64,000 bases of DNA from Bdellovibrionota bacterium (lineage in GTDB: Bacteria > Bdellovibrionota > UBA1018 > UBA923). The stretch covers positions 3,231 through 67,230 of the forward strand of contig JBFMCE010000003.1 in the NCBI GenBank assembly GCA_040754655.1. The letters run 5' to 3'. The translations under genes were made by a program, and so were the position numbers. The notes beneath the pieces were generated by a model. It worked only from the letters and a program-made list of their open reading frames with translations, was not told the DNA's origin and made no database searches. This document shows, piece after piece, positions 1 to 52,161 of this stretch; position 1 is the first letter of the stretch; each line of letters starts with the position of its first letter.

Positions 1-1196
1 GAACCTGGTTTTTTAAAGAGCACGGCTGCGATCAAACCCTTGCCCAAGATATACGAGATGCGATCCGGAAAGCTTGCTTGTATGTCCGCCAGTCCTTTGA
101 ATAAGAGCTCACCCTTGCGCTCAGTTTCAGAGATGAGTTCCAGCCTTTCAATTTCTTCCAAGGTAGCGAGACCAGCCGCCGACACCAGGGGATTGGCCGA
201 ATGGGTGCTGCTCATATTGCCTACTTCAGGCAAGTCCATGATGTGCTTTCGACCAAGTACTCCAGAAATAGGAAAACCAGATCCCATGCCTTTTCCAACA
301 GCGATGAGATCGGGTTCGACCTCGTAGTGTTCAAAACCAAATCGTTTTCCAGTTCTGGCAAAACCTGCCTGCATTTCATCGAAGGCAAGCAAGGCGCCGT
401 TGCTTCTGCAGATTCTCTCGATGCTTTTTACGAAGGCCTTGGGATAGAATACCGCGCCCCATCCCTGAAAAGTCTCAAGCATGAAACCACAAATGTCTTT
501 GGAAAGGTCAACGCCAGAGTCAGTGATCTTTTTCAGTCCTGTGGCGAGGAACCTCTCAGCAGCCGCCTCGTTTTCAATCAACCAAGGATAAGGAAATGGA
601 ATGTGATGGATGTTGGGATCAAGGTACCCCACCCACTCTTTTTGTTTAATATTGCTGCTCATCATTTGGGCGCCCATCGTGCGGCCATGCCAATTTGATT
701 CGATGCAGATGACGCCCAGTTTGCGTTTTCCTTGGGTCTGCCCGTGCATTCTCATCAGCTTGAGCGCGGCTTCAGTCGCTTCTGTGCCTGCGGAAAGCAA
801 AAAGGCCTTCTCAAAAGGAGGTCCTGCGAACTCGACGAGCTTCTTTAAGTAATGCAACCGAGGCTCGTTGGCGTAAGCGTATGAGTGCACCAGTTGTTGG
901 TCGAGCATCTTGCGAAGAGAGCTTGCAAGGTGTTCGTTTGCATGTCCAATATTCGTCACAAAGATAGTCGAAGTGAAGTCGATCCATTTATTCCCTGCTT
1001 TGTCATAAATACTATGACCCTTGGCCTTGTCCCAGACCAGAGGCAACTGGCCATGCATCGATCTAGATTCAACCTGATCGAGCTGGTTTAAGATCTGCTC
1101 AGTGCCCGGCGTAGGAATCTCGGTCTTTATCGTGCGGTGTTTCGTTTCGATGAGTGGGACTTTTTTTGGAGCGCGTGAAAATTGATATCCTGCCAT
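1..1196 (-). CDS. Class III PLP-dependent aminotransferase (GSA-aminomutase-like); the 3' end runs off the window
   Basis: Reverse-strand translation from ATG at 1196-1194 gives MAGYQFSRAPKK...AGTEATEAALKLMR...LAFDEMQAGFARTGKRFGFE...AVGKGMGSGFPISG. The FDE.Q.GF.RTG and GKG..G.P motifs are typical of class III aminotransferases. It is missing from the ORF track only because it runs off the window edge. Confidence 0.75.
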   Translation of the reverse strand, partial: MAGYQFSRAPKKVPLIETKHRTIKTEIPTPGTEQILNQLDQVESRSMHGQLPLVWDKAKGHSIYDKAGNKWIDFTSTIFVTNIGHANEHLASSLRKMLDQQLVHSYAYANEPRLHYLKKLVEFAGPPFEKAFLLSAGTEATEAALKLMRMHGQTQGKRKLGVICIESNWHGRTMGAQMMSSNIKQKEWVGYLDPNIHHIPFPYPWLIENEAAAERFLATGLKKITDSGVDLSKDICGFMLETFQGWGAVFYPKAFVKSIERICRSNGALLAFDEMQAGFARTGKRFGFEHYEVEPDLIAVGKGMGSGFPISGVLGRKHIMDLPEVGNMSSTHSANPLVSAAGLATLEEIERLELISETERKGELLFKGLADIQASFPDRISYILGKGLIAAVLFKKPG

Positions 1197-1201
1197 TATT
1201 G

Positions 1202-1921
1202 TCACCCGAATAGTTTTTGGAAAATAGTTTTGTCTTTATGGATCTGGAACTCAAGAAGTTCGAATTCTTCAAGCGTATCCACTTCGACGACCTTTGACGT
1301 TACGAAGCCGTAAACTTTGTTCCCATGAATGCGCTCGTGCTCTAATACGAATGAGGCGCGCAAGACATCTACGTATCCATTGCCATAAAAGGTCGGTGGA
1401 AACGCTTGTCTGGCAGAGTTTGAAGCATCCAGTTCGAAGGATCCTGATCCCACGGCCTTTAACCACTCTTCGTGGATCTCGAAAGACTTGTAAGCAGACT
1501 CTGGCATCTGGTGCACCGAGCGCAACGCGGTTGAGGGCGGTGAAGTTCTGAATTTTTCTATGGCTTGGTCAATGAGTTCAGGCTCTCTGAGCGGAGTTGT
1601 CGGCCTCAAGTGCACTAAGAATTCCGGTAGTTTGCCTTCATTGTCTTTAAACCAATCAAGCGCATGAGCGACAAATTCATAATCGGTTGACCGATCGCCT
1701 GAAATTGCAGCGGGTCTGAGGAAAGGAACTTCGGCGCCGTAGTGTCGCGCGATCTCGGCGATCTCGCTAGAGTCCGTTGAAACGATCGTTCTCGAGGTGT
1801 GTTTTGATAAAATCGATGCTCGTATTGAATATGCGATCAGCGGGTGCCCATGAAGTTGCTTGAGGTTTTTTCCGGGAATGCCTTTTGAGCCGCCTCTGGC
1901 GGGAATAATAGAATAAACCAT
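1202..1921 (-). CDS. Acylneuraminate cytidylyltransferase family (CMP-nonulosonate synthetase, NeuA-like)
   Basis: N-terminal IIPARGGSKGIPGKNL is the classic NeuA/CTP_transf_3 motif. Length 239 aa. Stop codon lies 3 nt from the downstream aminotransferase start. Confidence 0.85.
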   Translation of the reverse strand: MVYSIIPARGGSKGIPGKNLKQLHGHPLIAYSIRASILSKHTSRTIVSTDSSEIAEIARHYGAEVPFLRPAAISGDRSTDYEFVAHALDWFKDNEGKLPEFLVHLRPTTPLREPELIDQAIEKFRTSPPSTALRSVHQMPESAYKSFEIHEEWLKAVGSGSFELDASNSARQAFPPTFYGNGYVDVLRASFVLEHERIHGNKVYGFVTSKVVEVDTLEEFELLEFQIHKDKTIFQKLFG

Positions 1922-1938
1922 AACCTTCAGCCGAGATC

Positions 1939-2412
1939 CTAGTTCCTCGCCGCGGAATTTGCAACGACCCAGTCGTAGACATGCCTGACGATGCCGCTTC
2001 CACCGGCGGCCGGGATTGTTTTCTTCGCGAGCTTCAAGATTTCAGGATGGCTGTCATTGGGGCACATTGAAAAACCTACTATCTGCATGCAACCCGCGTC
2101 GTTCATATCATTACCGATGTAGCAAACGTCGCTTGGCGTGAGGCTTTTCTTTTCCAAAAGGGCGACAAGGGCTGCTTTTTTATCTTCCTGACCTTGAATG
2201 GCCTCAATATTGAGTTTTCTTGCGCGAGCACTCACCACGGGGTTTTTTTCGGTGGAAAGAATGATTTGTTCGATCCCCAGCTTTCGAATTTGTCCCATCC
2301 ACCACCCGTCAGAGCGGTTGCAGGCCACGCTTTCACGTCCATCTTCCGTGACCCAAACTCGGTTATCGGTGAGGACGCCATCAAAGTCGTAAACGATGAG
2401 TCGCGTTACCAT
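1939..2412 (-). CDS. HAD-IIIA phosphatase, KdsC-like (putative nonulosonate-9-phosphate / Kdo-8-phosphate type phosphatase)
   Basis: The DFDGVLTDN and GNDMNDAGCM motifs in a 157 aa protein match the KdsC / Kdn-9-P phosphatase subfamily. Confidence 0.8.
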   Translation of the reverse strand: MVTRLIVYDFDGVLTDNRVWVTEDGRESVACNRSDGWWMGQIRKLGIEQIILSTEKNPVVSARARKLNIEAIQGQEDKKAALVALLEKKSLTPSDVCYIGNDMNDAGCMQIVGFSMCPNDSHPEILKLAKKTIPAAGGSGIVRHVYDWVVANSAARN

Positions 2413-3251
2413 ATGGTTCTGCCTCCATCGATCACAAGGTTCGCACCTGTCATGAACGACGAGGCATCCGAGGCTAAAAATACTAATGCGCCCTTGTATT
2501 CATGGGGCTTAGCCATTCTTCCCATGGGGATGCGTTCAGTGAGTTCGCGAATGAACTTGGGGTCTTGATTGTTTTCAACGCCGGCAGGAGAGATCGCATT
2601 GACTCGGATATTTTGTTTCGCCCAGTAGGTCGCCCAATACCTCGTCATATGAATGAGGGCTGCCTTGCTTGTCGCGTACGACAACGGCGTATTGAATCCC
2701 ACTCCTGGATAGTCTCTTTCGGGATTTGGCTGGTAGATGCGATGGTCGGGGCTAATGACGCCTACATCGGAGGCGATGTTGATGATCGAGGCCCGCGGTG
2801 CGCGTTTTAGAAGGGGAGCCAAGCCCTGGGTCACCATGAAAGTGCCGGTTAAGTTGACGTGCATTGCAAGGTTCCAAAGTTCGAGCGGATACTCTTCGAA
2901 TGAGTCAAAATAGCGCTTAAACTTTTCTTGCCCACGGGCGACCGTCATTCCCGCATTGTTCACAAGGATATCAAGTTTGCCGAATTTCTCTTCGATAATT
3001 TGCGAAGCCTTGTCGATCGAGGCTTTGTCGCCAATATCGACTTCTTGAACGTGAATCTTTCCTTTGTGTTTTTCTTCCAAAGCCTGCTTGGCCTGTTGCA
3101 ACGCATCGGGGTTGATGTCCCAGAGCATGACAGAAGCATTTGCTTCAGCTAGCGCAGCAGCATGTTGTTTCCCAAGCAGGCCGGCACCGCCCGTAATAAC
3201 GGCAACACGGTCGGAAAGATCAAATAAGGCGTGAATCGATATCGTTTCCAT
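2406..3251 (-). CDS. SDR family oxidoreductase
   Basis: Rossmann motif TGGAGLLG, NNAG motif, and catalytic Y...K in YATSKAAL. Confidence 0.8.
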   Translation of the reverse strand: METISIHALFDLSDRVAVITGGAGLLGKQHAAALAEANASVMLWDINPDALQQAKQALEEKHKGKIHVQEVDIGDKASIDKASQIIEEKFGKLDILVNNAGMTVARGQEKFKRYFDSFEEYPLELWNLAMHVNLTGTFMVTQGLAPLLKRAPRASIINIASDVGVISPDHRIYQPNPERDYPGVGFNTPLSYATSKAALIHMTRYWATYWAKQNIRVNAISPAGVENNQDPKFIRELTERIPMGRMAKPHEYKGALVFLASDASSFMTGANLVIDGGRTIW

Positions 3252-3353
3252 AAGAACTCTCTTTGCACGGGTCGCCAGGTTAAGGCAAGGTCCTCGTTAT
3301 GGTCGACTTGTTTTGGGCTTTCTTGGACTTCAAATCATGCTACAGTTGGGCCC

Positions 3354-4247
3354 ATGGCGCAAACCGAATGCTTGAACTGCAAGTTTAGCGAACACGAAGT
3401 GAAGTACAAGGGACCTATTCGAGCAGGAACTTGGGGCCATCAGACCTCCGAAGACCAGCAAGTGCTCGCCTGCAAGCGATGCGGGCTTGCGCGGCTTGAG
3501 CATTTTCCGGATCAAAAAAAATTCTATAGCTCGGCAGAGTATCGCAATGCATATAATGGCTCTGTTCAGGTTCAAGATTATTTCAAGCTTCATGATCATG
3601 AACAGTCTCCTCGCATCGCGAACATCGGCGTTGAAAAGTTTCGGGGCGCTCGTGTTCTTGATTATGGTTGTGGCGGTGGGGCATTTCTGGATTTGGTGAA
3701 AGGTGTTGCCCAAGAGACTTTTGGGATTGAACCTTGCCTTGAGTTTCACGAGAGCTTAGGGAAACGCGGCCACCAAATTTTTGAATCGGCCCAAGATGCG
3801 CTTTCTCGAGTTGACGGGTCGATGGATGTCGTGCTGTCTTTCGGAGTGATTGAGCATGTCGTAGATCCGCTTGAATATCTTCAAAACATCAAAAGATTAT
3901 TGAAACCCGGCCGAAGCGCTTACCTGGAAACCGACAACCTCAATGAGATTTTGATGAACCTAGAAGTTCGTGAGTTTGAGCCCTTCTTTTATCGAACAGC
4001 TCATCTTTGGTATTTCACCGCTGAGACTTTGAAATCGCTTTGTGAAAGGGCGGGGCTTGAGGTGAGGCACATTGGGTTTCGGCACACTTACGATCTTTCA
4101 AACGCGATGGTGTGGATGAGAGACAGGCGTCCTACAGGGTTGAATAAGCTTGGCCTTTTTGATGATTCAATGAATGCCATGTGGCGATCTTCGTTGGAAG
4201 CAAGAGGCTTGGCTGATCTTATTTTCTTCGAGGTTGGGAAGGGTTAG
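3354..4247 (+). CDS. Class I SAM-dependent methyltransferase with N-terminal Cys4 zinc-ribbon
   Basis: CLNCKF...CKRCG zinc ribbon followed by SAM motif VLDYGCGGGAFLDL. The ORF-track start at 3231 overlaps the convergent SDR gene, so the internal ATG at 3354 (MAQTECLNCKF) is preferred. Confidence 0.7.
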   Translation: MAQTECLNCKFSEHEVKYKGPIRAGTWGHQTSEDQQVLACKRCGLARLEHFPDQKKFYSSAEYRNAYNGSVQVQDYFKLHDHEQSPRIANIGVEKFRGARVLDYGCGGGAFLDLVKGVAQETFGIEPCLEFHESLGKRGHQIFESAQDALSRVDGSMDVVLSFGVIEHVVDPLEYLQNIKRLLKPGRSAYLETDNLNEILMNLEVREFEPFFYRTAHLWYFTAETLKSLCERAGLEVRHIGFRHTYDLSNAMVWMRDRRPTGLNKLGLFDDSMNAMWRSSLEARGLADLIFFEVGKG

Positions 4248-4340
4248 GCGCTTCTTACACGAAGATATGGAAGCCTTGGTTCGCGTTCGTTCTGAGGCAG
4301 CTCAGTTTGATGACGAGGGGCTTGGAGGAGTCAGGGCAGC

Positions 4341-4994
4341 TTATTCGTTCGGTCGATCTATTTGGAATGTAATCCCGTCTTTGTACTTAGAGTCGCCGTA
4401 GTTTGTTTCCCAAAGGATTTTACTGGCGGCGCTATCGTCTCGAAAACTAATCTTGTAAGCAGTAGATCCGAGTTCGCTTGCGTTTTCTTCTGAGATCTTG
4501 AATTCGACCTGTCGTTGAAAGGTCGTATTTTCGGGCCGAAATTTTGCCTTTCCGATTGGAAACAGCGTTCCTTGGTAGGAGCCTAGACGCGACTGAACGA
4601 CTGCATGGATAGCGTCGAGGTCTCTTTTAGAGATCGTTTGCACCATCTTGTTGTAAGCGTCTCTTGCCGCATCCAAGCAGTACTTAAAGGATTTAGAGTG
4701 TTTTTTTGAGTTTCCGGCGGTCTTTATCTCGAACTTGGTTGTTCGCGGATATCCCGTTTCACCGCGTGAGATGATAAATTCGTAATCTCCCCTGACGGCA
4801 TCTTTTTGAAGATCGGCAGTCCTTATTCCGCTTCGAGTCAAGCACCCCTGAAACATTGCAAGTGGGATTCCCGTAAAATGCCATGCGGAATATTGTCTTT
4901 GGGATCGTGTAAAATTATCTGAGGGATTAGTTGCGGTTGCGCAGCCGGTGATGGAGCTGAGGATCATGCATCCAAGAAGTAGCGCTAGCTGCAT
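4341..4994 (-). CDS. Hypothetical lipoprotein
   Basis: From the internal Met, MQLALLLGCMILSSITGCATA gives a signal peptide with an ITGC lipobox. GGAGAAAAATG Shine-Dalgarno precedes this start. No recognisable catalytic motif. Confidence 0.5.
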   Translation of the reverse strand: MQLALLLGCMILSSITGCATATNPSDNFTRSQRQYSAWHFTGIPLAMFQGCLTRSGIRTADLQKDAVRGDYEFIISRGETGYPRTTKFEIKTAGNSKKHSKSFKYCLDAARDAYNKMVQTISKRDLDAIHAVVQSRLGSYQGTLFPIGKAKFRPENTTFQRQVEFKISEENASELGSTAYKISFRDDSAASKILWETNYGDSKYKDGITFQIDRPNE

Positions 4995-5183
4995 TTTTCT
5001 CCGACGTGATGGATTTAAACAGAAGTACTTTATCATGGGTTTTATTACTTCAAGGATCCCGTTTTAAAAAGCCTTATTTGGGCTCTTTTTTTGGGAGTGT
5101 CGCTCGTTCGTGTGTTCGCGTGGCGGAGAAGTAGGTGATTCGTGGCCTGAAGATTGCTTAGGTTGCGGCAAGAGGTAAAGAAA

Positions 5184-6212
5184 ATGAACGAGTTTCAATC
5201 CAAACTTCATGAACAGGCGTTGGTGGTGGCTAGAACACATCGGGAGGCAGAAGCGGATCTTCTCGACGTCTTGCAAAAGGTTGAACAGCACAAGGTATTC
5301 ATTGCGGTTGGCTGCTCGAGCATGTTCCAGTACTGCGTCCAAATCTTAAGACTGTCTGAGAACACGGCGTTCAATGCCATTACTGTCGCAAGAAAATCCA
5401 AAGAAGTTCCAAGTCTCAAGCAGGAAGTGAAGGCTGGTCGAATTACCCTTTCCAGTGCCAGAAGAGTTACTTCGGTATTAACTCCGAAAAACCAACAGAA
5501 GTGGCTGGGACTTGCCTCGCGCCTTCCACAAAGGGCGCTTGAAAGGGAGATTGCAAAAGAAAACCCAAGAACCGCTACTCGAGAGATGGCGACCTATGTC
5601 TCAGAACACAGATTGGAGTTGAAACTTGGCGTTTCGGAAAAACTTATTGCCGATTTAAGAAGGGTTCAAGACCTCTTGAGTCAAAAGCGCCAGAAGCCCG
5701 TAAGTCTTGAGCAAGCTTTGGAGGCGATGACAGCGCTTTACCTTGAAAGTAACGATCCGGTAAAGAAAGCGGACCGGATTCTTGGGAGGGTTGGCCGGCA
5801 ATCGGATTCTGTAGGAAAGACACCGCAGGTCGCGACGGAGAATCATAAGGTGCCGGCGCAATACGAAGACCAGATCTCGACAACTCAATTCGGCGCACGC
5901 CGAGAATCCCGACAAGTTAGGACAGGTGCTCCAATGTCTTTCATGACTGCGCCGCAAAGGCTAGCCGAGGCTCAACCCGTGCGTCCTAATAGGAGAGCAG
6001 CGATTTTAGCTGGAGTTCGTCATAAGGTCTTTAGGAAGACAAAGGGACAATGCACTTATCGGGACTCCAAAGGAAATCGATGCAATGAGCAGAGGTGGCT
6101 GCATTTTCACCATATCAAACCCGTTTCAGAGGGGGGCGAAAATGTTCAAGAAAATCTCACGCTTCTTTGTAGGAATCACCATGTCTATTTGCATCGGATG
6201 GGAGTGATATAG
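5184..6212 (+). CDS. HNH endonuclease domain protein (DUF222-like N-terminus)
   Basis: C-terminal C..C...HFHHIKPVSEGGENVQENLTLLCRNHH is an HNH motif (H-N-H with CxxC). RBS AAGAGGTAAAG lies upstream of the ATG at 5184. Confidence 0.7.
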   Translation: MNEFQSKLHEQALVVARTHREAEADLLDVLQKVEQHKVFIAVGCSSMFQYCVQILRLSENTAFNAITVARKSKEVPSLKQEVKAGRITLSSARRVTSVLTPKNQQKWLGLASRLPQRALEREIAKENPRTATREMATYVSEHRLELKLGVSEKLIADLRRVQDLLSQKRQKPVSLEQALEAMTALYLESNDPVKKADRILGRVGRQSDSVGKTPQVATENHKVPAQYEDQISTTQFGARRESRQVRTGAPMSFMTAPQRLAEAQPVRPNRRAAILAGVRHKVFRKTKGQCTYRDSKGNRCNEQRWLHFHHIKPVSEGGENVQENLTLLCRNHHVYLHRMGVI

Positions 6213-6285
6213 GTACTGAGTAAGTCATTGGAAGAAAAAACTTGTCGGAAAGAAGTAAGCTTTTCCTTTTGTCCCTTCTGGAATG

Positions 6286-7044
6286 CTAAGCGGGCGTTTG
6301 ACCGCCATCGACCCTAACAACGCTTCCAGTGCAAAACGAGGCTTGGGTTGAAGCGAGAAAAACCACGAAAGAAGCGATTTCTTCTGGTTTTCCAAAACGT
6401 TTCATCGGTACGGCGGCTTGAATGTGTTGCTCGATCTTTTCTTTGTCTCGGGTCATGAGAGCTTCCCAGCGCCCACCCTCAGCATAAATATTTCCCGGGG
6501 CGACGAGGTTGAAGCGTATCGAGTCTTCAGCCAGTTCTTTTGAGGCAATTACGCAAAAGTGTTCAAGGGCGCTTTTGGCGGCACTATAGCTTACTGGGGC
6601 GCCTAACCTGGTTTGGCCTGCGATTGAAGAAATGCCCACGACCGAAGCTTTTCGCGAGGTTTTCAATAAAGGTCTGAACAATCGAAGAAGCCCTGCATGT
6701 GAAACCAAGTTGAGATTTAAAACCCGGTGCCATTCTTCGTCTGGGGTATCAAGGCCTGCGTGTGATGCCTGCCCACTCCCGACGTTTAAAACCAGGATGT
6801 CGAGGCTCGTCCATGTCTGCTCGACTTCCGAAAAGAACCTTTTTCGATCATCCCCACGCTCTAAGTCGCAGATAGTAAATTTACAGTTAGCAAGCGCCTT
6901 AGATGCCTTAAGAAGTTGCTTCTCGTCTCTGCCAGTGATCCAGACCTCGGCCCCTTCTTCAAAGAAAGCCTTGGCAATAGCAAACCCCATTCCCCGCGAG
7001 CTTCCGGCAATGGCCACGCGAGCGCCCTGCAATCCTAACTGCAT
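6286..7044 (-). CDS. SDR family oxidoreductase
   Basis: AIAGSSRGMGFAIA Rossmann motif, NVGSG motif, and catalytic Y...K in YSAAKSAL. Confidence 0.8.
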   Translation of the reverse strand: MQLGLQGARVAIAGSSRGMGFAIAKAFFEEGAEVWITGRDEKQLLKASKALANCKFTICDLERGDDRKRFFSEVEQTWTSLDILVLNVGSGQASHAGLDTPDEEWHRVLNLNLVSHAGLLRLFRPLLKTSRKASVVGISSIAGQTRLGAPVSYSAAKSALEHFCVIASKELAEDSIRFNLVAPGNIYAEGGRWEALMTRDKEKIEQHIQAAVPMKRFGKPEEIASFVVFLASTQASFCTGSVVRVDGGQTPA

Positions 7045-7883
7045 AAGTTATTGATCCACTCTTTGACCATGCGACGGTACTTCGCAGCCGCACCCAAATA
7101 GTCTTCCGAAGGTGCGGTTTGAAGAATGAAATCTTCGTTATAATGAGAAGCCTTCAGCCCCTTAAATGCGCGTTCAAAGTCAGTATTACCCGAAAGTAAA
7201 GGAACCGTTGTCCCGCCAAGCATACGGTCTTTGATGTGCACATTTAAAATCCGGTCACCAAAGGCCCGACACTCCGATAGCGCGTCATATCCGAGAGCGG
7301 CAGAATTGCCTAAGTCAAGATTTGCTCCCACATTCTTTGGAAGTTGATTTAAAAAATTCCGAAACTCAACAGGTGCGAGGTCAGTTTCAACAGCGATACG
7401 CAAACCAAGCTCGCTGGCTTTCTCTGCAACCAGCGCAAGCCTCTCGACTGCAAGCGTTCTATCTTTGGGGTCCTGCAACGACGACGAGTCGACAAACGGG
7501 AATTCCACCAAAGGGCATTTGATCTGTCGAGCAATTTCCAAGAGCTCGAATGTTTTGGCCATGATGCCTTTGGCTTTCGATGAATCGCGCTCTACGAGCT
7601 TGTGGATCATGAAATAGTCAGCGCAAATAGATGCGAGGGCAATCCCAGACCGTTTCGATAGCGCCATCAGCTCTTGCCGCCCTGAGACGCTGACCAAGGG
7701 ATTGTCTACGAGGTAGAGTTCATCATAAATAAGCTCGATGCATTCGAACTCAAGTGATTGAGCTCGCTCAAATTCTTCTCGCCAAGACTCGCGTGGGAAG
7801 GCTTGAATGCGATCAGAGGGCTTTGGTGAGAGCCTTCCCTGCATGAATCCTACTCTGTGCGGGATTTTGCTTTGAAGAAGCAC
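7035..7883 (-). CDS. Sugar phosphate isomerase/epimerase (xylose-isomerase-like TIM barrel), putative
   Basis: 282 aa with alternating acidic/hydrophobic TIM-barrel pattern (ECIELIYDE, RIAVETD, NLDLGN). Weak motif-level match only. Confidence 0.4.
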   Translation of the reverse strand: MLLQSKIPHRVGFMQGRLSPKPSDRIQAFPRESWREEFERAQSLEFECIELIYDELYLVDNPLVSVSGRQELMALSKRSGIALASICADYFMIHKLVERDSSKAKGIMAKTFELLEIARQIKCPLVEFPFVDSSSLQDPKDRTLAVERLALVAEKASELGLRIAVETDLAPVEFRNFLNQLPKNVGANLDLGNSAALGYDALSECRAFGDRILNVHIKDRMLGGTTVPLLSGNTDFERAFKGLKASHYNEDFILQTAPSEDYLGAAAKYRRMVKEWINNLCS

Positions 7884-7889
7884 GTTTGT

Positions 7890-8747
7890 TTAGGCCTCGA
7901 AATAACGCAGCTTCTTTGCCACTGCCTTTTCAGCGTCGCCGAAAGTTTTTTCGCCGGTGCCAAAAGCCCCTTCCATAGCGCGAATGTATTTTGTCAAAAT
8001 CTCAAGTCCACGTGACTCAAGAGAAGCCGCCTGATCACTGCCATACATCGCGCGATCAAGCGTGATGTGTCTTTCGATCGCATCGGCTCCGAGTGCTGCA
8101 GCCAACATAGAGGGCAATACCCCTGCTTCATGGCCACTATAGCCAACAGGGCATTTGTAGCGTTCCCGCAACGAGAGCATCACAGCCACATTGGTTTCAT
8201 TTTCCGCACAAGGGTAAGTCGAGACGGTGTGCATCAAAGTGTATTTGCAGTTTTGTTTTTCAAAAATTTCTACGGCGCGATCAACTTCTGGATAGCCGCA
8301 CATCCCCGTCGAAATAAAAGTATGCTTTTTCTCGGAAGCAACGCGCTCTACAAACTTCCAGTGCGTCAGCATCGCAGAAGCGATCTTGTTATGAGCGCAA
8401 TTGAATTTTTCTAAGAAATCTTGGCTGCCTAAATCCCATGCCGAAGCAAACCAACCGATACCGACCTCTTTGCAATAACGGTCGATTTCTTTGTACTGGT
8501 CTTGATTGAATTCAAGTCCCATCTTTTGTTCACGTTGGGTTGTCCCCCACGGGCTCTCTCTGGTCTGAGAAAGTACTTCTTGCGTGTACACGACGTTGAT
8601 GTCGCGCTTCTGGAACTTCACGTAGTCGCAGCTATTCTTTTTGGCCATATCAATGAGTTGTTTTGCGATCTCCACACTTCCGTTGTGATTGATTCCGATT
8701 TCTGCGATGATGGCGCATTTAGAATTGGGGCGTTTTACAGCAAACAT
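7890..8747 (-). CDS. NeuB-family nonulosonate synthase (PEP-condensing), short form lacking the C-terminal SAF domain
   Basis: IIAEIGINHNGS is the signature NeuB motif; YSGHE metal-site region is present. At 285 aa it ends before the antifreeze-like domain that PseI and LegI in this window carry. Confidence 0.85.
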   Translation of the reverse strand: MFAVKRPNSKCAIIAEIGINHNGSVEIAKQLIDMAKKNSCDYVKFQKRDINVVYTQEVLSQTRESPWGTTQREQKMGLEFNQDQYKEIDRYCKEVGIGWFASAWDLGSQDFLEKFNCAHNKIASAMLTHWKFVERVASEKKHTFISTGMCGYPEVDRAVEIFEKQNCKYTLMHTVSTYPCAENETNVAVMLSLRERYKCPVGYSGHEAGVLPSMLAAALGADAIERHITLDRAMYGSDQAASLESRGLEILTKYIRAMEGAFGTGEKTFGDAEKAVAKKLRYFEA

Positions 8748-13490: not shown

Positions 13491-14554
13491 AAAAAATTAA
13501 AATGGTTTTAAGCATCGGACGCCAGTTTCTTGAATTGCTTTTCACCTTGAAGCCCAAAGAGAAATCGCGAACACCCATAAAGGTGCTCGCAAAACCTGCT
13601 TTCTTGGGTGGGCCGGCGACGAAGGTTTCTCAACTGACCGAGATAATGGCGCACCGAAGGCAGCATTATTCCTCGGTCTTTTGTCTTTCGGCGGTTCATA
13701 CGCCGATTTTTCTTTTAAGGATTTTGAAGCTTCTGGGCGCTAAGGTCGTCGTCAATCAAAACGGCGTTTATTATCCCAGTTGGTTCCCTCTCGGATGGGA
13801 GGAAAAGAACGCTTATCTCAGAAGGTTGAACGTGCTTTCTGATCATACTTTTTTTCAAAGCGAGTTCGCATTGCGAAGTTACAAACAGTGGGTTGGCGAT
13901 TTGCCCAAAAACTATTCCATCCTTCATAATCCCGTAGACACGAGAAAGTTTTTGCCACTCGAGGAAGGGGCGCTAAAGAATAATGCGCTTCGAGTCTTGG
14001 TATTCGCGGACGTGTCTGAGTTTACCGAGCCCTTGTGGCAATGCGTAAAGGGACTGCTGCATTACATGGAGTTTCACCCCTTGGAACGCGTCAGCGTTGA
14101 GTGGACTTTGATGGGAAGAATCCTTTCCGGAAAGGTGTTTGATCGCCACCAATTGGGAGAGCTTGATAAGATCGAAAAATTAAAGATAAAGATGGTTTGG
14201 GAACCCGAAGCTCATGTCGTTCCCGAGAGAATCCGAGAGCATGATGTCGCGCTACACCTGGTGTACAATGACGTTTGCCCCAACAAAGTATTGGAGTGCC
14301 TCGCCTCAGGGCTCGGAGTGATCGGCTTGAGCGCCGGAGGAACGGTCGAACTGGTCGGCGACGCGGGAATTACTCTCAACGTCCCTCAAGGCTTCGGGAA
14401 ACCGGCATTCCCGGCTTACTCTGAACTTCGAGAAGCGCTTTCATCCTATTTTGCGCAAAAACAAGAATACCGCCGCAGGGCGGTCCTGCGAGCACAACAG
14501 TTTGATTTGACTTTGTGGCATGAAAAAGTTCGAAAAGAATGCTTACGGTCTTAA
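13487..14554 (+). CDS. Glycosyltransferase group 1 (GT4-like)
   Basis: C-terminal VLECLASGLGVIGLSAGGTVELV matches the GT4 E..E-type motif. ATGA stop/start overlap with the upstream gene. Confidence 0.55.
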   Translation: MKKIKMVLSIGRQFLELLFTLKPKEKSRTPIKVLAKPAFLGGPATKVSQLTEIMAHRRQHYSSVFCLSAVHTPIFLLRILKLLGAKVVVNQNGVYYPSWFPLGWEEKNAYLRRLNVLSDHTFFQSEFALRSYKQWVGDLPKNYSILHNPVDTRKFLPLEEGALKNNALRVLVFADVSEFTEPLWQCVKGLLHYMEFHPLERVSVEWTLMGRILSGKVFDRHQLGELDKIEKLKIKMVWEPEAHVVPERIREHDVALHLVYNDVCPNKVLECLASGLGVIGLSAGGTVELVGDAGITLNVPQGFGKPAFPAYSELREALSSYFAQKQEYRRRAVLRAQQFDLTLWHEKVRKECLRS

Positions 14555-16504
14555 CTTACGCTCCAGATGGCGTGCGATCCTTTCCGCGGATTTTCCATCC
14601 AAAGGCCCGGTGTGCTGGGTGACGTAATTCAACGACATCCGGATTTGCCTCTGGCATCTCTCGCCACCGCTGAGCATTTCTTGAAAGAGATCTACTAGGT
14701 TATCCTCAGGCCCTGCTACGGGAATACCGGCTTCAGAAGCATAGTGCGTTTGTTTTTCAAGCTCTGCCTGAACGTGACGAGGCTGAATGGATACGATCGG
14801 AGTTTGAGAGAGAATGAGCTGGGAGGTGGCGCTGCTGAAGGGAACGATCACGAGATCGCAACCAGAAGCAAGTTCGATGAGATCCGCCGAATGGATGATT
14901 TTGGGCATGCGCGAAACTAGCCTTGCGATCTGTTTTTCGAGTGCGACCGGGTCTTGTTGCGGATGCGCCTTTACGAGAACTTCTGCGTTTAGCGCTGCGG
15001 CTGCCGCTAAACTTGAGCGATAAAACGCGTCAAGGTCGCGCGCGGAATACCACTCATCCGGATAAGTGGCGAGAATCAAAAAGATAGGGGCTTCTTTGTC
15101 GAAATTATAGTGCGCCACAAGTGCATCTTTTTGCACTTGTCGGTTGAGCTTCGACACTTTGTCTACAAGAGGATCTCCTACGACTTCAATTTGATCTGGC
15201 TTACATGCTCTTTCATTCACAAAGCCCGTCGCCAGAAACGAGCCGCTCGTGCCAAAGTGCCTGCTGAGCCTACGCACCAGCCCGATGAAGGGCGAAGGAG
15301 AAAGAAAGGAATACGATACTGTGGGAATCCCTTTTCGTTCAGCTTCAAGCGTGAAGGCCCGGTTGATGTCCCATTCTTCGAAGTGGACGATCAAATCGGG
15401 CGAAAAGTGATCGATGCAGCGTTTTGATGTCTCTGCGTGAAGCGCCGTAACCGGGCTTGCTTCACTGATCATTTCCTCTAGGAATGGCTGTACCAAAGGA
15501 GCAAGCTCAACTCCCTTGTACTGCAAGCTGAAGGCTGCCGTCCGGAAAACAGGCAGAACGCCTTTAATCTTCGCTGAAACCTCTCTCACGATTCGTTTTG
15601 TTTCTTCTCGTGATATGAATCCGGACGCAGCCACGATCTTCACGCCGCGATTTTCGAGCCTGCCAAGAAGGGTGTCTCGCTCTAGGTCTTTGCCTACGAA
15701 GTCAGTTGCCACGATAAACTCTGCATCCAGGGTCTGACCAAAGGTTTCAAGTAACGCCTCTAGACGCCTGAGTGTGCGTTCTTTGTATGCGACGAAGAGA
15801 AGCCGAGGTTTTTCTTTTGCGTGAACGTCTTGGCGCTTGGGTTCGGTTGGAGTGAAGGTGAGCCAGTCTTTAAGCATGTAGTCGTAGTCGATCTTAGGGG
15901 ATGCATCAAGGCCTTGGATGAGTTCCAATAGTTTCGACTCAAGGGAATCCTCGCCAGGAACTTTGATTTCTTTTCTCGGGAGCATTCTTTGGAAGATCAG
16001 TTCTGGTACAGAGTTTCTGGAAAAAGTAAAATATTCCAAGTCTGGTTCTTCGTGAGTCAAGTCCCTGAATGCCTCGACGTAAACGATATAGTTGGCAAGA
16101 ATTTGAAAGGCCCACCTGGGTTCGGAGATTTTGAAGACAGAGCTTCCTCTCCAGGCAAGACCTGATTTTTCGCCAGCCACTTGAGCAAAGGCTTCGAGTT
16201 GGTCGGCGAAGTTGTGCAAAGGAGTGTAGTCGGTTTGATGAATGACTCCGGGTAAAATATCTTGATATTGGCAAAGACCGGTTCGGACGCTTCCCGGCAA
16301 ATTCTCGCTAACGGCCTTGCTAATCAACCCTCGCCAGTGCGCGTTAGGAGCCTGTTTGAAAATGCGGGCTATTTGTCGCTTGATGACGAGGCTCCCAAGC
16401 GCTTTCAACGCCAACCTTGGAACGCGTGCATAACGCCGTCTTCCGATGGGGAAGATATGATTTGCGGTTACAAGAACCGCTTCAATGGCTGGTTGTTTTC
16501 TCAA
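14543..16504 (-). CDS. Large hypothetical GT-B-like protein (Capsule_synth/TagF-like?), paralog group A
   Basis: 653 aa. C-terminal block PIFLILATYPDE...VLVKAHPQQ...VIVPFSSATSQL...GIPV shares a [KR].HP ... S/T-rich ... G.PV pattern with the ORFs at 54285 and 59629. Confidence 0.3.
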   Translation of the reverse strand: MRKQPAIEAVLVTANHIFPIGRRRYARVPRLALKALGSLVIKRQIARIFKQAPNAHWRGLISKAVSENLPGSVRTGLCQYQDILPGVIHQTDYTPLHNFADQLEAFAQVAGEKSGLAWRGSSVFKISEPRWAFQILANYIVYVEAFRDLTHEEPDLEYFTFSRNSVPELIFQRMLPRKEIKVPGEDSLESKLLELIQGLDASPKIDYDYMLKDWLTFTPTEPKRQDVHAKEKPRLLFVAYKERTLRRLEALLETFGQTLDAEFIVATDFVGKDLERDTLLGRLENRGVKIVAASGFISREETKRIVREVSAKIKGVLPVFRTAAFSLQYKGVELAPLVQPFLEEMISEASPVTALHAETSKRCIDHFSPDLIVHFEEWDINRAFTLEAERKGIPTVSYSFLSPSPFIGLVRRLSRHFGTSGSFLATGFVNERACKPDQIEVVGDPLVDKVSKLNRQVQKDALVAHYNFDKEAPIFLILATYPDEWYSARDLDAFYRSSLAAAAALNAEVLVKAHPQQDPVALEKQIARLVSRMPKIIHSADLIELASGCDLVIVPFSSATSQLILSQTPIVSIQPRHVQAELEKQTHYASEAGIPVAGPEDNLVDLFQEMLSGGERCQRQIRMSLNYVTQHTGPLDGKSAERIARHLERKLRP

Positions 16505-24498: not shown

Positions 24499-25692
24499 AT
24501 GCGTTTGATTTTCAAACAGCCTGATGTGCTGTTTTTTCTGGCGATTTTTTCGTTATCTGCGGCAATCATACTCGGTTTTCCCCAAGACATCCGATTTGAC
24601 CAGCAGCTCATCCGTTACGTCTTTTCATTCAAAGACTTTCCCTCGTTCGATGATGGCGTCATCTCTCATTTGATTGCGGGTTTTTACAATCGATTCGTTG
24701 CTCCCAGTGCCGAGAGTTTGAACCAACATTTCCGCTTTTTAGCAATGACCGGTTTTTTGACCTCTGCGTTTTTGCTCTGCAGGTTGGTCGTTCGTGATTG
24801 GCGCTTGCGCTGCATCTTCTTGGCGTTTTTAATGCTGTCACGTTTGCCGTTTTTATGGCTCAGTACCGAGCTTTTCACCGCGACGGCGTTTTGTGTGGCT
24901 TTGATTGGAATGCTCGAAAACTGGAAACCTCATTGGCTTGCACTGGCGCTGGTTATGCTGGCCAACACGAAGCCCGATCTGATCTTGGTTGCCACGGCGC
25001 TTTTGGGATACGCGGTTTTCTTTGAACCTTCGCATAAGAGGCAGCGCTTGAGATTGGTCTCGTGTTTTATAGGGTTTGAGGTCTTGCTTTGGATCCCTGG
25101 TTTTATCGCGAATGGGAATCAGTTTTTCGGAAACCGGGGCTTCATGGCTTTTGCCCAGCACTATTCTGATTTGGTTTATCCCCATCAGGCCGCCGCTCAG
25201 GCGGCCGATCCGTGGTTGCAACCCGAAAAGTACATGGAGCGGATTTTTCCAAAAGCGCAATCGATACGGGATCTGGTCTTGCATTACCCGGTGAAGTATT
25301 TTGATTTTCTGACCCTCTCCCTTGGAAAGGGTTTTAAGAACCTGATCCGGCTCTTTGGCTTCTTGGCTTTGCTCTTCCCGATGCGCATCGCCTTTTTGAA
25401 TAGGATGCCATTGACCCGTTTCGAGAAAATCGTGGGGATTACGCTCGTGGGTTTTGTTCCGTTCTTTTTGCTCTCGTACCCTCACGTGAGGTATATGACG
25501 AGGTATTACCCGGCTTTTGTGATTCTTTTGGCGGCATGGACGGAGAGATTGCCCGATCCAAAGAAAGGCAAAACCCATATCAAGAGATATGCTTATGCTA
25601 CGATGGCAATGGCGTTGGCCTTCCAAGCCTTTTTGTTCTTCCGCGACCTGCATGCCTTGAGCTTTGGCGGTTACTTTTGGTTTCCGGATTGA
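24499..25692 (+). CDS. Polytopic integral membrane protein (GT-C or Wzy-like), function unknown
   Basis: 397 aa with about 10 hydrophobic helices. Its position after a DPM1-like GT2 suggests a GtrC-like lipid-sugar-utilising transferase. Confidence 0.4.
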   Translation: MRLIFKQPDVLFFLAIFSLSAAIILGFPQDIRFDQQLIRYVFSFKDFPSFDDGVISHLIAGFYNRFVAPSAESLNQHFRFLAMTGFLTSAFLLCRLVVRDWRLRCIFLAFLMLSRLPFLWLSTELFTATAFCVALIGMLENWKPHWLALALVMLANTKPDLILVATALLGYAVFFEPSHKRQRLRLVSCFIGFEVLLWIPGFIANGNQFFGNRGFMAFAQHYSDLVYPHQAAAQAADPWLQPEKYMERIFPKAQSIRDLVLHYPVKYFDFLTLSLGKGFKNLIRLFGFLALLFPMRIAFLNRMPLTRFEKIVGITLVGFVPFFLLSYPHVRYMTRYYPAFVILLAAWTERLPDPKKGKTHIKRYAYATMAMALAFQAFLFFRDLHALSFGGYFWFPD

Positions 25693-26544: not shown

Positions 26545-27294
26545 TCAATAGACTAGACTAGTTGAGGCAGTTCGTTCGATCTGGCCATATTTATTTAGGA
26601 TTTCTGCAACTAAAGATACTGTTCCATCGTCATGAAATGAAGTTTGTAGTTTGAATACATTTTTTTCAAAACTTGGTCGAGGCAGGTCAAAAAGCCAGGT
26701 GATCGGAATACCATCTTGAAGATTGATCTCATTTGAGGTGAACAAAGCTCCGTTCGAAGTCGCCTTTGCACTCAAAAGAAGTTCTTCTGCTCTCGCCGTT
26801 CCGAACTCAGGGATGTAAAAAGTTGCCACTGCTTTCAGGGGCTTTCCAGGTTCATTGGTAAAAGAGACATGCATGTTCATCTTGTTGTAAATTTTATTCT
26901 GGTTCTGGCGGTATGCAGGAGGTTTTGGTCGATCATAAGTATAAACTGGTATTTCAAAGGCGAAAAAAGCAGTTCTCAGATGAATTGAAGTCCTCATCGC
27001 GTCGATGCGTTTTTCTGCCGAAAGTTGCTCTGTTAGCGGTAGGTATTCTTTTAGAATCTCTCGGCGCGTCTCATATAAATTCTCGAGTGTTTCTCGCACC
27101 TTCGTCGTCCCACCAGGTACGAGGAGCGTAAAGCAGGATCTTAATAAATCATGTTGGTTCCAGATACTTTTGTTTACTTTCCCTAATTTTTCTTGAACTT
27201 GATCAAAGCGAATGTGAAGGCTGCTTGGGTCATTCGCATGGGCCAGGATCGGAGAAACCAGTAAGCTAAACAGAATAAGTTCTTTTTGAAACAT
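26545..27294 (-). CDS. Hypothetical secreted protein
   Basis: MFQKELILFSLLVSPILAHA signal peptide and no recognisable domains. Lies in a locally AT-rich patch. The start could instead be at 27306. Confidence 0.45.
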   Translation of the reverse strand: MFQKELILFSLLVSPILAHANDPSSLHIRFDQVQEKLGKVNKSIWNQHDLLRSCFTLLVPGGTTKVRETLENLYETRREILKEYLPLTEQLSAEKRIDAMRTSIHLRTAFFAFEIPVYTYDRPKPPAYRQNQNKIYNKMNMHVSFTNEPGKPLKAVATFYIPEFGTARAEELLLSAKATSNGALFTSNEINLQDGIPITWLFDLPRPSFEKNVFKLQTSFHDDGTVSLVAEILNKYGQIERTASTSLVY

Positions 27295-27440
27295 GGTGCA
27301 CTGCATTATAATAAAGGCTTTTGATTGTAAATATCTTAAATTTTGATTTGCGTTGCCTTCAGATCCGTCATCGATCGGCCTCAAAATCGTTCATGTTTTC
27401 CAGGACAGGTCGCCCAGACTTGTCGTAAGGTGTATCCAGA

Positions 27441-32023: not shown

Positions 32024-32142
32024 TTCTTTGAAACACTCCGTATGGGCGAAATTAAATCAAATGAGGTTAAAACACAAAAGCTAAAGACAGGCGCCGGGAT
32101 AAGCCATTGAAGAAGCAAAATGTTTCATGCATAAACAGGGAA

Positions 32143-42029: not shown

Positions 42030-42928
42030 AACTTGGCTTGGGTACCGTGCAGTTCGGCTTAAACTACGGTGTCTCAAACCGATCTGGGATCGTAGCGCCG
42101 TCCGAAGTGAAGAATGTACTGGCATGCGCTGCGAAGTCCGGCGCCGTTGGCTACCTTGATACGGCGACCGCTTACGGGAGCGCAGAAGAGGTTCTGGGTG
42201 CGACCCTTGAACAGAGGCACCCATTCAAGATCGTGACGAAAACCCCGACTTTTAAAGATTCCTTGATTTCTAGCGAGAGTGCCGACGAGTTGGAACGAAG
42301 TTTCAGGAAGTCATTGTTAAGACTGAACCAGACTGCAGTCTATGGCCTGCTTGCGCATCACGCCTCACCTCTTCTTGATCGCGATGGCGCGTTCTTGTTC
42401 GATCGAATGTTGAAGCTCAAAGAACAAGGCGTGGTGAAAAAGATCGGCGTCTCGGTTTACAGCGCCGAAGAAATAGATCGGGTCATTGAACGCTATCCTG
42501 TTGAGCTGATCCAAGCGCCTGTGAGTCTTTTAGATCAGCGTCTTGTGACCGGTGGGCACTTGGCGCGCTTGAACGAAAGAGGCATCGAAGTGCATGCCCG
42601 CTCTGTTTTCTTGCAAGGGCTTCTTTTGATGGAGGCCGATAATATTCCTCGGAACTTGGCTTCGATTCAAGAGCATTTGGGCAACTTGCGTGCTGAGGTC
42701 GAAGCACGGGGGCTGACGATGTTGCAGGCGGCGCTGGGTTTTGTATTGAATCTAGAAGCCGTGACGGCATGCTTGGTGGGTGTTTGCTCTTTAAGCGAGT
42801 TGAATCAAATCTTGGAAGCAGCCCGGTTGGCGCAAGAAAAGAAATTTGAGATCTCAGGCGTCGCAGCAAGTGCCGCTTGGGACGATGAGAGGGTGTTGAA
42901 CCCATTTTTTTGGGAGAAGTATGCTTAA
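42026..42928 (+). CDS. Aldo/keto reductase
   Basis: MKLGLGTVQFGLNYGVSN...DTATAYG is the AKR N-terminal signature. Confidence 0.8.
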
Positions 42929-51338: not shown

Positions 51339-51344
51339 CGAGAG

Positions 51345-52157: not shown

Positions 52158-52161
52158 AGCC

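Follow-up and report, generated by a model that had tools for sequence, protein, structure and literature searches.

The question raised by this locus, a 64,000-nucleotide stretch of contig JBFMCE010000003.1 from a Bdellovibrionota bacterium (the whole stretch is designated the window), is whether it encodes a third nonulosonic acid pathway that proceeds through phosphorylated sugars. Nonulosonic acids on microbial surfaces govern recognition by hosts, phages and predators, and the known bacterial routes to them use nucleotide sugars, as for N-acetylneuraminic (Neu5Ac), legionaminic (Leg) and pseudaminic (Pse) acids, or, in a few cases, mannose-6-phosphate (Man-6-P), as for 2-keto-3-deoxynonulosonic acid (Kdn). 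An initial annotation of positions 1-8747 had proposed a route with phosphorylated intermediates. The present analysis indicates, with a probability of roughly 0.65, that seven minus-strand genes in this region form one cassette that makes a CMP-activated nonulosonic acid by a phosphosugar route. This reading was built on gene content, domain assignments, the affinity of the synthase to Kdn-9-phosphate (Kdn-9-P) synthase, the residue signature of the phosphatase and synteny across phyla, all of them read from sequence.

Genes were called from the listing of open reading frames (ORFs) and their frame translations, and domains were assigned by Pfam and NCBIfam scans. The seven genes, with the names used below, are:

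7890-8747, minus strand: NeuBs, a NeuB-family synthase of 285 aa with the motif IAEIGINHNG (Pfam NeuB).
7035-7883, minus strand: TIM, a xylose-isomerase-like, UlaE-like TIM barrel (Pfam AP_endonuc_2).
6286-7044, minus strand: SDR_B, a classical short-chain dehydrogenase/reductase (SDR) of 252 aa (Pfam adh_short_C2, 175 bits).
2406-3251, minus strand: SDR_A, a classical SDR of 281 aa (Pfam adh_short_C2, 180 bits).
1939-2412, minus strand: HAD, a C0-type phosphatase of 157 aa with the KdsC fold (NCBIfam KdsC models, below cut-off).
1202-1921, minus strand: CMPT, a cytidylyltransferase of 239 aa (Pfam CTP_transf_3, 84.6 bits).
1-1196, minus strand: AT3, a class III (omega-type) aminotransferase, its C-terminus cut by the window edge (Pfam Aminotran_3, 266 bits).

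The KdsC-type HAD, NeuA-like CMP-transferase, TIM barrel, two SDRs and class III aminotransferase listed in the initial annotation were all found, on one strand. The start of HAD and the end of SDR_A have 7 nt in common, the TIM and SDR_B genes overlap by 10 nt, and CMPT and AT3 are separated by 5 nt. The start codon of TIM is probably the ATG at 7844, because the NCBI product has 269 aa.

The Pfam NeuB domain of NeuBs (223 bits) extends over residues 31-267 and leaves only 18 C-terminal residues, and therefore no room for a SAF domain. Its absence, on which the earlier proposal had leaned, is thus confirmed, and the PseI and LegI-like synthases of the window are longer, with 349 and 359 aa, respectively. 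Among the NCBIfam models, NeuBs scored 229.7 bits with NeuB_NnaB (cut-off 399.65) and 171.6 bits with PseI (cut-off 340.25), which places it outside the canonical free-sugar class, and it is 33% identical to the LegI-like paralogue. It aligned end to end with the Kdn-9-P synthetase of Prymnesium parvum (K9PS, sequence taken from the supplement of PMC6200933) at 32% identity and 134 bits, whereas K9PS gave just 89 and 86 bits with the LegI- and PseI-like paralogues of the window. K9PS has 312 aa and belongs to a family with Pfam NeuB alone, and its best 120 matches were all algal. The P. parvum enzyme uses Man-6-P only and rejects mannose, N-acetylmannosamine (ManNAc), ManNAc-6-phosphate (ManNAc-6-P) and arabinose-5-phosphate (Ara-5-P) (Wagstaff et al. 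2018, PMC6200933).

NeuBs and K9PS have in common the motif KFQKR, at a position where the SAF-type paralogues have K[FI]QT[FY], as well as an enlarged beta2-alpha2 loop (R..[WY]G.T..[RH]..LEF) and a short basic C-terminal tail (AK.KL[RK][YW]), neither of which is present in the SAF-type paralogues. A review on how NeuB enzymes evolved ascribed the preference of human NanS for phosphosugars to its alpha2beta2 loop, here taken to correspond to the beta2-alpha2 loop of NeuBs and K9PS, and noted SAF-less NeuB clades in environmental bacteria, with no function assigned to them (PMC8208679). Residues E16, K44, Q46, K121, S124, S146, S204, H206, E225, H227 and D238 were invariant over the aligned NeuBs, K9PS and SAF-type sequences, and the catalytic and metal-binding core of NeuBs is intact in this alignment.

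In a neighbour-joining tree, the NeuBs family and the algal Kdn-9-P synthases were separated from PseI, LegI, Neisseria meningitidis NeuB, Campylobacter jejuni PseI and PDB entry 6ncs in 500 of 500 bootstraps; the placement of 6ncs was ambiguous, as it joined the NeuBs and K9PS group in 289 of 500. The NeuB homologue 6ncs also has no SAF domain but lacks the K9PS-type motifs, and the vertebrate Neu5Ac-9-P synthase NANS retains an antifreeze-like (SAF) domain. For these reasons the lack of the domain is not diagnostic by itself, so that the argument made from it at the outset holds as an observation but is weak evidence when it stands alone. From its motifs and tree position, NeuBs is predicted to be an enzyme of the Kdn-9-P synthase type that condenses phosphoenolpyruvate (PEP) with an aldose phosphate.

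The initial annotation had suggested profile searches for both NeuB and the KDN-9-P phosphatase; the first gave the strong Pfam match reported above, while the second fell short. HAD scored 86.1 bits with the KDN-9-P phosphatase model NF058599 (cut-off 180), below the equivalog level, 106.8 bits with the KdsC model NF007019 (cut-off 208) and 103.6 bits with TIGR01670 (YrbI/KdsC, cut-off 106.95). Its best PDB match was the uncharacterised protein 3mmz (121 bits), and its catalytic and binding motifs are DFDG and STEK..RARK. Glu56, Arg64 and Lys67 (numbering of BT1713, the Bacteroides KDN-9-P phosphatase) were present in 23 of 23 NeuBs-linked HADs, bacterial and archaeal, the window HAD included, and also in 3mmz, whereas Arg56 and Thr/Ser67 stand at the corresponding positions of the two KdsC sequences in the comparison, E. 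coli KdsC and 3mn1, a YrbI protein. Glu56 and Lys67 have been probed experimentally in BT1713, since PDB entries 4hgq and 4hgr are its E56A and E56A/K67A mutants. Arg64 and Lys67 of BT1713 reportedly bind the acidic nonulosonate. The signature leads us to predict that the window HAD is a nonulosonate-9-phosphate phosphatase, one that appears to resemble the KDN-9-P phosphatase in mode yet is no close member of the Bacteroides family.

Synteny was examined by tblastn of the window proteins against 83 related loci and in the gene tables of three distant contigs, and the counts given below refer to the 69 loci of at least 12 kb. NeuBs homologues gave at least 8000 matches; all of the 120 best had Pfam NeuB alone and 260-327 aa (most 275-296), and among the matches listed those from Melioribacteraceae and Verrucomicrobia were still 62-66% identical. 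A protein from a Bdellovibrionota metagenome-assembled genome matches NeuBs at 100% identity. Scanning a single genome of each prokaryotic species for the pattern gave at least 599 matching stretches, 579 of them confirmed. The best 80 of the at least 579 confirmed stretches came from many bacterial phyla and from Archaea and were 58-79% identical to the window synthase. The bacterial carriers among these 80 include Pelagibacteraceae, Prochlorococcus, Magnetococcales and a Leptospirales metagenome-assembled genome (MAG), and the archaeal carriers Methanoregula, Methanomicrobiales, Methanoperedens, Thermoplasmatales and Woesearchaeota. From Bdellovibrionota to methanogens, the synthase is about 60% identical.

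A KdsC-like HAD was found in 18 of the 69 loci, and in 13 of these it lies no more than 300 nt from NeuBs. A further 29 loci have, directly after the synthase, a mini-HAD of about 100-105 aa in which all four HAD motifs (FDIDGT, TAR, GKP, DD) could be aligned and which weakly matches the EcbF/BcbF capsule-biosynthesis phosphatase model TIGR01689. Two examples are:

L001, 10846-11151: mini-HAD.
L003, 10887-11216: mini-HAD.

The two types never occur together (0/69); one or the other was present in 47/69 loci, in most adjoining the synthase. That two unrelated phosphatases occupy the same position argues that dephosphorylation is integral to the pathway.

The remaining genes recur with different frequencies. 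TIM, SDR_A and SDR_B were each present in 53 of the 69 loci and a CMPT-like gene in 41. A class IV (branched-chain aminotransferase fold) enzyme occurred in 31 loci and a class III aminotransferase in 24 (a few of these matches were weak), so that most loci have some aminotransferase. A glyoxalase/VOC gene accompanied CMPT-AT3 in 22 loci, with the complete CMPT-AT3-VOC trio in about 20, while L003 encodes a CMPT-VOC fusion. A methyltransferase was found in 30 loci and a GmhA-like SIS isomerase in 27. The methanogen loci have the order SIS-HAD-NeuBs, and a 359-aa protein in L002 (13290-14369), in which a KdsC-like HAD is fused to a GmhA-like SIS domain (phosphoheptose isomerase model, 185 bits), is predicted to link steps one and three of the pathway. 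By analogy with the stereochemistry of GmhA, an enzyme of this kind acting on fructose-6-phosphate would be expected to yield Man-6-P.

Three loci (L014, L036 and L081) consist of minimal CMPT-HAD-NeuBs triads with no TIM, SDR or aminotransferase gene within 10 kb. In the tree of NeuBs, the minimal loci and those with class III and class IV aminotransferases were interspersed and not sorted by tailoring set, which, together with the existence of the triads, favours a single synthase reaction common to all of them, with tailoring modules added on. The Leptospirales MAG locus L064 (9989-16963) has NeuBs-CMPT-AT3-VOC and, after these genes, two methyltransferases and two radical-SAM enzymes, one of the SPASM type and one that is B12-binding, and lacks the TIM barrel and the SDRs; it thus combines the same core with a different tailoring set, and the tailoring sub-modules are therefore separable.

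In the closest relative, the Oligoflexia locus L004, the genes are contiguous in the order NeuBs-TIM-SDR_B-SDR_A-HAD-CMPT-AT3-VOC-methyltransferase. Since that cassette is unbroken, the window cassette was split by an insertion of about 3 kb (3252-6285) between SDR_A and SDR_B. The gene list of the initial annotation, correct for the enzymes that it named, missed the three genes in this segment:

3354-4247, plus strand: SAM-dependent methyltransferase (Pfam Methyltransf_23).
4341-5036, minus strand: lipoprotein-like ORF without any family match.
5154-6212, plus strand: HNH endonuclease of 351 aa (Pfam HNH).

The lipoprotein-like ORF and the HNH endonuclease occurred in 0 of the 83 related loci and are not pathway members. 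The methyltransferase is 58% identical to the one that closes the L004 operon and is probably cassette-associated, though it lies on the opposite strand inside the inserted segment. Scans for flanking repeats of the insertion and for promoters and terminators around the operon gave no signal above chance. Because L004 continues past AT3 with the glyoxalase/VOC and methyltransferase genes, the module is probably truncated at the left edge of the window, and L004 was used as a stand-in for the full operon beyond that edge. No VOC, SIS, class IV aminotransferase or mini-HAD gene was found anywhere in the 64-kb window.

CMPT scored 134 bits with the PseF model (cut-off 205.7) and at most 55 bits with KdsB models. 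It is 35% identical to the window CMP-transferase at 57665-58363 and 33% identical over 124 aa to the P. parvum CMP-Kdn synthetase. CMPT is predicted to be a CMP-ulosonate synthetase.

For TIM, a search of the family profile against the PDB identified the L-xylulose-5-phosphate 3-epimerase UlaE (87 bits), and an AlphaFold2 model (pLDDT 92.9) had UlaE as its top Foldseek match (TM 0.82), followed by ketose 3-epimerases, the 3-keto-glucoside 4-epimerase YcjR, and keto-sugar lyases and hydratases. All of these structural relatives act alpha to a sugar carbonyl. The UlaE residues Glu155, Asp185 and His211 are invariant in the TIM family, while the position of Glu251, which we take to be the fourth metal ligand and second catalytic base of UlaE, is an invariant Gln. 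An epimerase is thus no more likely than a one-base isomerase, a lyase or a dehydratase. With NCBIfam epimerase models TIM scored at most 40 bits (cut-offs of at least 200), outside the UlaE/SgbU families, and fold and residues together lead to the prediction of a keto-sugar(-phosphate) isomerase, lyase or epimerase. No NeuB-TIM fusion was found among the best 120 TIM homologues. The SDRs matched generic FabG and gluconate-5-dehydrogenase-like models; the best NCBIfam matches of SDR_A, below cut-off, were sugar-acid dehydrogenases (GolD/DthD, gluconate 5-dehydrogenase), and its PDB search gave no substrate clue. The NCBIfam families nearest to AT3 were acetylornithine, gamma-aminobutyrate (GABA) and putrescine transaminases, all below cut-off, and its PDB relatives, generic omega-transaminases and class III racemases, also gave no substrate clue.

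Taken as a pathway, the cassette would begin with the SAF-less synthase, which would condense PEP with an aldose phosphate, most parsimoniously Man-6-P and supplied in relatives by the GmhA-like SIS isomerase, and so form a 9-phospho-nonulosonate of the Kdn-9-P type. The KdsC-fold HAD would then take off the phosphate, and the CTP_transf_3 enzyme would turn the free acid into the CMP-sugar. TIM, the two SDRs and the aminotransferase may carry out oxidation of a hydroxyl, isomerisation, elimination or epimerisation alpha to the resulting carbonyl, and then reduction or transamination. The pathway would thus end not in Kdn but in a Kdn derivative that is epimerised and/or aminated, possibly deoxygenated and possibly methylated. 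The conversion of Man-6-P to Kdn-9-P is the most parsimonious core because one common synthase reaction is favoured and genes for forming a ManNAc-6-P-type substrate are missing from the neighbourhood; a hexosamine-6-phosphate, a pentose-5-phosphate or a heptose-7-phosphate is a possible substrate instead. The pattern of the NeuBs tree, the CMPT-VOC fusion of L003 and the CMPT-AT3-VOC string argue for tailoring after condensation, while the sugar-phosphate relatives of TIM argue for tailoring at the sugar-phosphate stage. Substrate, chain length, tailoring order and the position of oxidation and amination are thus what we infer from the company that these genes keep.

A mode of action like that of the pathway made up of Kdn-9-P synthase, phosphatase and CMP-synthetase, with a conserved but uncharacterised tailoring set added, is supported for the module, and mainly by evidence other than the missing SAF domain. 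The grouping of the synthase with K9PS, the BT1713 residues in HAD, and the phosphatase and SIS neighbours across phyla all favour the phosphorylated-intermediate route proposed at the outset. The synthase and phosphatase are not close members of the characterised families, as the KDN-9-P phosphatase and NeuB cut-offs were not reached and the synthase identity is 32%.

Several observations weigh against the proposal, 1) the 32% identity to K9PS resembles the 33% to the LegI-like paralogue, so transfer of substrate from K9PS is unsafe, 2) the tree had few outgroups and left out vertebrate NANS and Bacteroides thetaiotaomicron BT1714, 3) HAD scored below the cut-offs for both the KDN-9-P phosphatase and KdsC, and its overall score is nearer to KdsC, 4) neither type of phosphatase lies within 10 kb in 22 of the 69 loci, 5) the 64-kb window has no SIS isomerase gene, 6) the nearest relative of TIM acts on a sugar phosphate, so that tailoring before the phosphatase or the condensation would fit and the product need not be a Kdn derivative, 7) AT3 may not depend on the TIM and SDR oxidoreductases, because L064 has neither, and 8) no characterised member of the NeuBs family or of its tailoring enzymes was found in the literature searched.

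Among the alternatives, the one that survives best, although it is unlikely, is an animal-like Neu5Ac-9-P route in which PEP would be condensed with ManNAc-6-P (or mannosamine-6-phosphate), HAD would act on Neu5Ac-9-P and CMP-Neu5Ac would be formed. Next to an aminotransferase and a CMP-synthetase, Leptospira interrogans encodes a second NeuB whose fusion partner is an endonuclease-like domain described as a "phosphatase"; endogenous Neu5Ac was reported and such a route was proposed for this neuB2 cluster (Ricaldi et al. 2012, PMC3438082; Fouts et al. 2016, PMC4758666). The Leptospirales MAG locus L064 likewise has NeuBs-CMPT-AT3. The phosphatase signature does not separate Kdn-9-P from Neu5Ac-9-P, because BT1713-type phosphatases also accept Neu5Ac-9-P. 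The Leptospira fusion protein is, however, a putative member of the NeuBs family. Moreover, no ManNAc kinase, N-acetylglucosamine-6-phosphate 2-epimerase or N-acetyltransferase was found among the scored neighbours in the 69 loci or within 1-8747, and the sole characterised relative of the synthase rejects ManNAc-6-P (PMC6200933).

A free-sugar route, in which the tailoring enzymes would act on a hexose-6-phosphate, HAD would remove the phosphate from this hexose and the free sugar would be what the synthase condenses, in the manner of NeuB, LegI and PseI, is quite improbable. It would accommodate the nearest relative of TIM, which acts on a sugar phosphate, and 6ncs, a SAF-less NeuB homologue outside the K9PS-like clade; kanosamine-type pathways, moreover, combine sugar-6-phosphate oxidation and transamination with a HAD phosphatase. 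However, the synthase has the motifs and the clade in common with an enzyme that is specific for Man-6-P and rejects free mannose, HAD retains Arg64 and Lys67, and the minimal CMPT-HAD-NeuBs loci lack tailoring genes with which to make a special hexose phosphate.

It is very unlikely that the phosphosugar has another chain length, either a pentose-5-phosphate that would give a Kdo-like C8 acid or D-glycero-D-manno-heptose-7-phosphate, formed with the GmhA-like isomerase, that would give a C10 deculosonic acid. HAD scored slightly higher with the KdsC models, the SIS partner is GmhA-like (185 bits), and the cassette is present in Rhodospirillales and Magnetococcales MAGs. CMP-activated C10 ulosonic acids were described in Magnetospirillum in a 2026 preprint, with no genes assigned to them (10.64898/2026.04.20.719630); these acids and the GmhA-like partner make a higher-carbon product conceivable. 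Those C10 acids are diamino sugars, however, the signature of HAD is of the KDN-9-P type and not of the KdsC type, the window has no SIS gene, the characterised synthase relative rejects Ara-5-P, and the cassette is found in Archaea and Actinomycetota, which are without Kdo-containing lipopolysaccharide (LPS).

The possibility, raised in the initial annotation, that HAD is a genuine KdsC, so that HAD and CMPT would be ordinary KdsC/KdsB genes for the LPS core beside a NeuB paralogue with no third pathway, is scarcely credible and largely refuted: HAD was just under the TIGR01670 cut-off and CMPT has weak KdsB matches, but HAD retains Glu56, Arg64 and Lys67, no kdsA, kdsB or kdsD homologue was found by Pfam and NCBIfam scans among the window ORFs of at least 150 aa, the HAD, SDR_A and CMPT genes overlap or abut in the cassette string, the same gene set accompanies NeuBs across phyla, Archaea included, and CMPT is far nearer to PseF than to KdsB.

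An all-against-all BLAST of the window ORFs identified three NeuB paralogues and three CTP_transf_3 genes, the latter at 1202-1921, at 57665-58363 and in the N-terminal part of a 680-aa fusion at 46013-48055. The two further synthases are:

49666-50715: PseI synthase, 349 aa, above the NCBIfam cut-off.
61202-62281: NeuB_NnaB/LegI-like synthase, 359 aa, above the NCBIfam cut-off.

Each belongs to a set of genes that scored above the NCBIfam cut-offs, the pseudaminic acid set with PseB (39874), PseC (40866), PseG (48052), PseH (49073) and PseI (49666), and a legionaminic/neuraminic-type set with a PtmE-like nucleotidyltransferase (56619), a CMP-transferase (57665), the NeuB_NnaB-type synthase (61202) and a NeuC-type enzyme (62278). 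Among the other large ORFs, the scans identified an initiating transferase, glycosyltransferases, a polymerase of the Wzy type and an ABC exporter. The third nonulosonate module is real and lies within a large surface-glycan locus. That three CMP-transferases imply three distinct activated acids is a plausible hypothesis.

The fusion at 46013-48055 (plus strand), inside the Pse set, joins its CTP_transf_3 domain to a class III pyridoxal phosphate enzyme resembling glutamate-1-semialdehyde aminomutase (PRK06209 model, 437 bits); with it, one locus pairs a CMP-transferase and a class III aminotransferase twice. Two sets of genes for acetamidino formation, each with a WbuX N-acetyl sugar amidotransferase, HisH and WbuZ/HisF2, are located at 42921-45456 and 50712-53283 (plus strand); their paralogues are 31-37% identical pairwise, and the duplication suggests that two different sugars of the locus become acetimidoyl forms. 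Eight large ORFs of the glycan locus (279-653 aa), each scanned against one library at the thresholds used, had no match: 14543-16504, 24499-25692, 26545-27384, 32107-33543 and 37412-38758 in Pfam, and 54285-55892, 58315-59661 and 59629-61287 in NCBIfam. An analogy to C. jejuni PtmF as a SIS protein paired with PtmA was dropped, since PtmF appears in the Plesiomonas paper as an oxidoreductase of 326 aa.

A third module, based on phosphosugars, is indicated by this locus, and its conservation is strong, both in the identity of its synthase between bacteria and archaea (about 60%) and in its recurrence in at least 579 stretches of species representatives. A more far-reaching reading, tentative and with the odds somewhat against it, is that the product would be an undescribed nonulosonic or higher-carbon acid, a relative of Kdn that is epimerised and/or aminated and possibly deoxygenated and methylated, built wholly from sugar phosphates. 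Equally tentative is the corollary that no nucleotide-sugar intermediates of the kind used for Leg and Pse would be involved, and the suggestion that SAR11, Prochlorococcus, methanogens, Thermoplasmatales, Bdellovibrionota and pathogenic Leptospira may display such an acid is likewise somewhat doubtful. Should the product prove to be a new sugar, it would account for some of the ulosonic acids that environmental mass-spectrometry surveys have left unassigned, and, if true, the scheme would offer a testable alternative to the "animal-like Neu5Ac pathway" proposed for L. interrogans. The analysis also provides a simple rule for annotation, Glu56/Lys67 marking a nonulosonate phosphatase and Arg56/Thr67 a KdsC.

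Comparison with known systems showed partial counterparts for the tailoring enzymes. TIM has the fold of UlaE/SgbU and three of the four metal or catalytic residues (Glu155, Asp185, His211) but differs in the replacement of Glu251 by an invariant Gln, which makes a two-base epimerisation doubtful. The E. coli YcjQRS logic is that of a dehydrogenase/TIM-epimerase/dehydrogenase triad, and the pairing of TIM with two NAD(P) oxidoreductases suggests an analogous sequence of oxidation, chemistry alpha to the carbonyl and then reduction. In contrast to YcjQRS-type triads, however, the oxidoreductases of the cassette are SDRs, not members of the Gfo/Idh/MocA or medium-chain dehydrogenase families, and an aminotransferase is added. 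The Kdo8N pathway of Shewanella sets a precedent in which a completed ulosonic acid is oxidised, by KdnB, and transaminated, by KdnA, although its enzymes (an iron-type alcohol dehydrogenase and a DegT-like aminotransferase) are unrelated and its backbone is C8.

The L. interrogans sas/neuB2-aminotransferase-neuA2 cluster (LA_1613-LA_1615) is similar, as judged from its description, in that a second NeuB lies by an aminotransferase dependent on pyridoxal phosphate and a CMP-synthetase, with a Leg set in the locus. The endonuclease-like domain fused to that NeuB is plausibly the AP_endonuc_2 TIM barrel, which is a separate gene here. The published reading is of a phosphatase domain and Neu5Ac, whereas the TIM barrel of the cassette is UlaE-like and not a phosphatase, and the HAD phosphatases are separate.

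The Kdo pathway (KdsD-KdsA-KdsC-KdsB), with its SIS isomerase, PEP condensation, C0 HAD and cytidylyltransferase, is mirrored by the archaeal SIS-HAD-synthase strings. The cassette differs in that its synthase is NeuB-type and not the DAHP-synthase-like KdsA, its SIS partner is GmhA-like and not KdsD, its HAD has Glu56/Lys67 and not Arg56/Thr67, and it also occurs in organisms without LPS. The vertebrate NANS/NANP/CMAS pathway follows the same scheme as the cassette, with condensation of a hexosamine-6-phosphate and PEP, removal of the 9-phosphate by a HAD and CMP activation. NANP, however, belongs to another HAD subfamily, NANS differs from NeuBs in keeping its antifreeze-like domain, and the cassette has no ManNAc-6-P-forming enzymes among its scored neighbours. 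The enlarged beta2-alpha2 loop implicated in phosphosugar use by NANS (PMC8208679) is found in the cassette synthase as well.

The comparison with the Kdn pathway, represented by B. thetaiotaomicron BT1714/BT1713/BT1715 and by P. parvum K9PS and CKS, showed both differences and likenesses. The synthase identity is 32% and the phosphatase match about 60 bits, and NeuBs forms a separate, very conserved clade. The cassette usually adds a TIM barrel, two SDRs and an aminotransferase, whereas the Kdn pathway is not known to include such tailoring genes, and the mini-HAD, a different phosphatase, is commoner in the cassette (29/69 loci) than the KdsC-like HAD (18/69). The core is nevertheless alike, a synthase, a 9-phosphate phosphatase and a CMP-synthetase. 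The P. parvum synthase is also SAF-less, with about 300 aa and the KFQKR motif, loop and tail of NeuBs, and BT1713 has the C0 KdsC fold with Glu56, Arg64 and Lys67, as does the HAD of the cassette.

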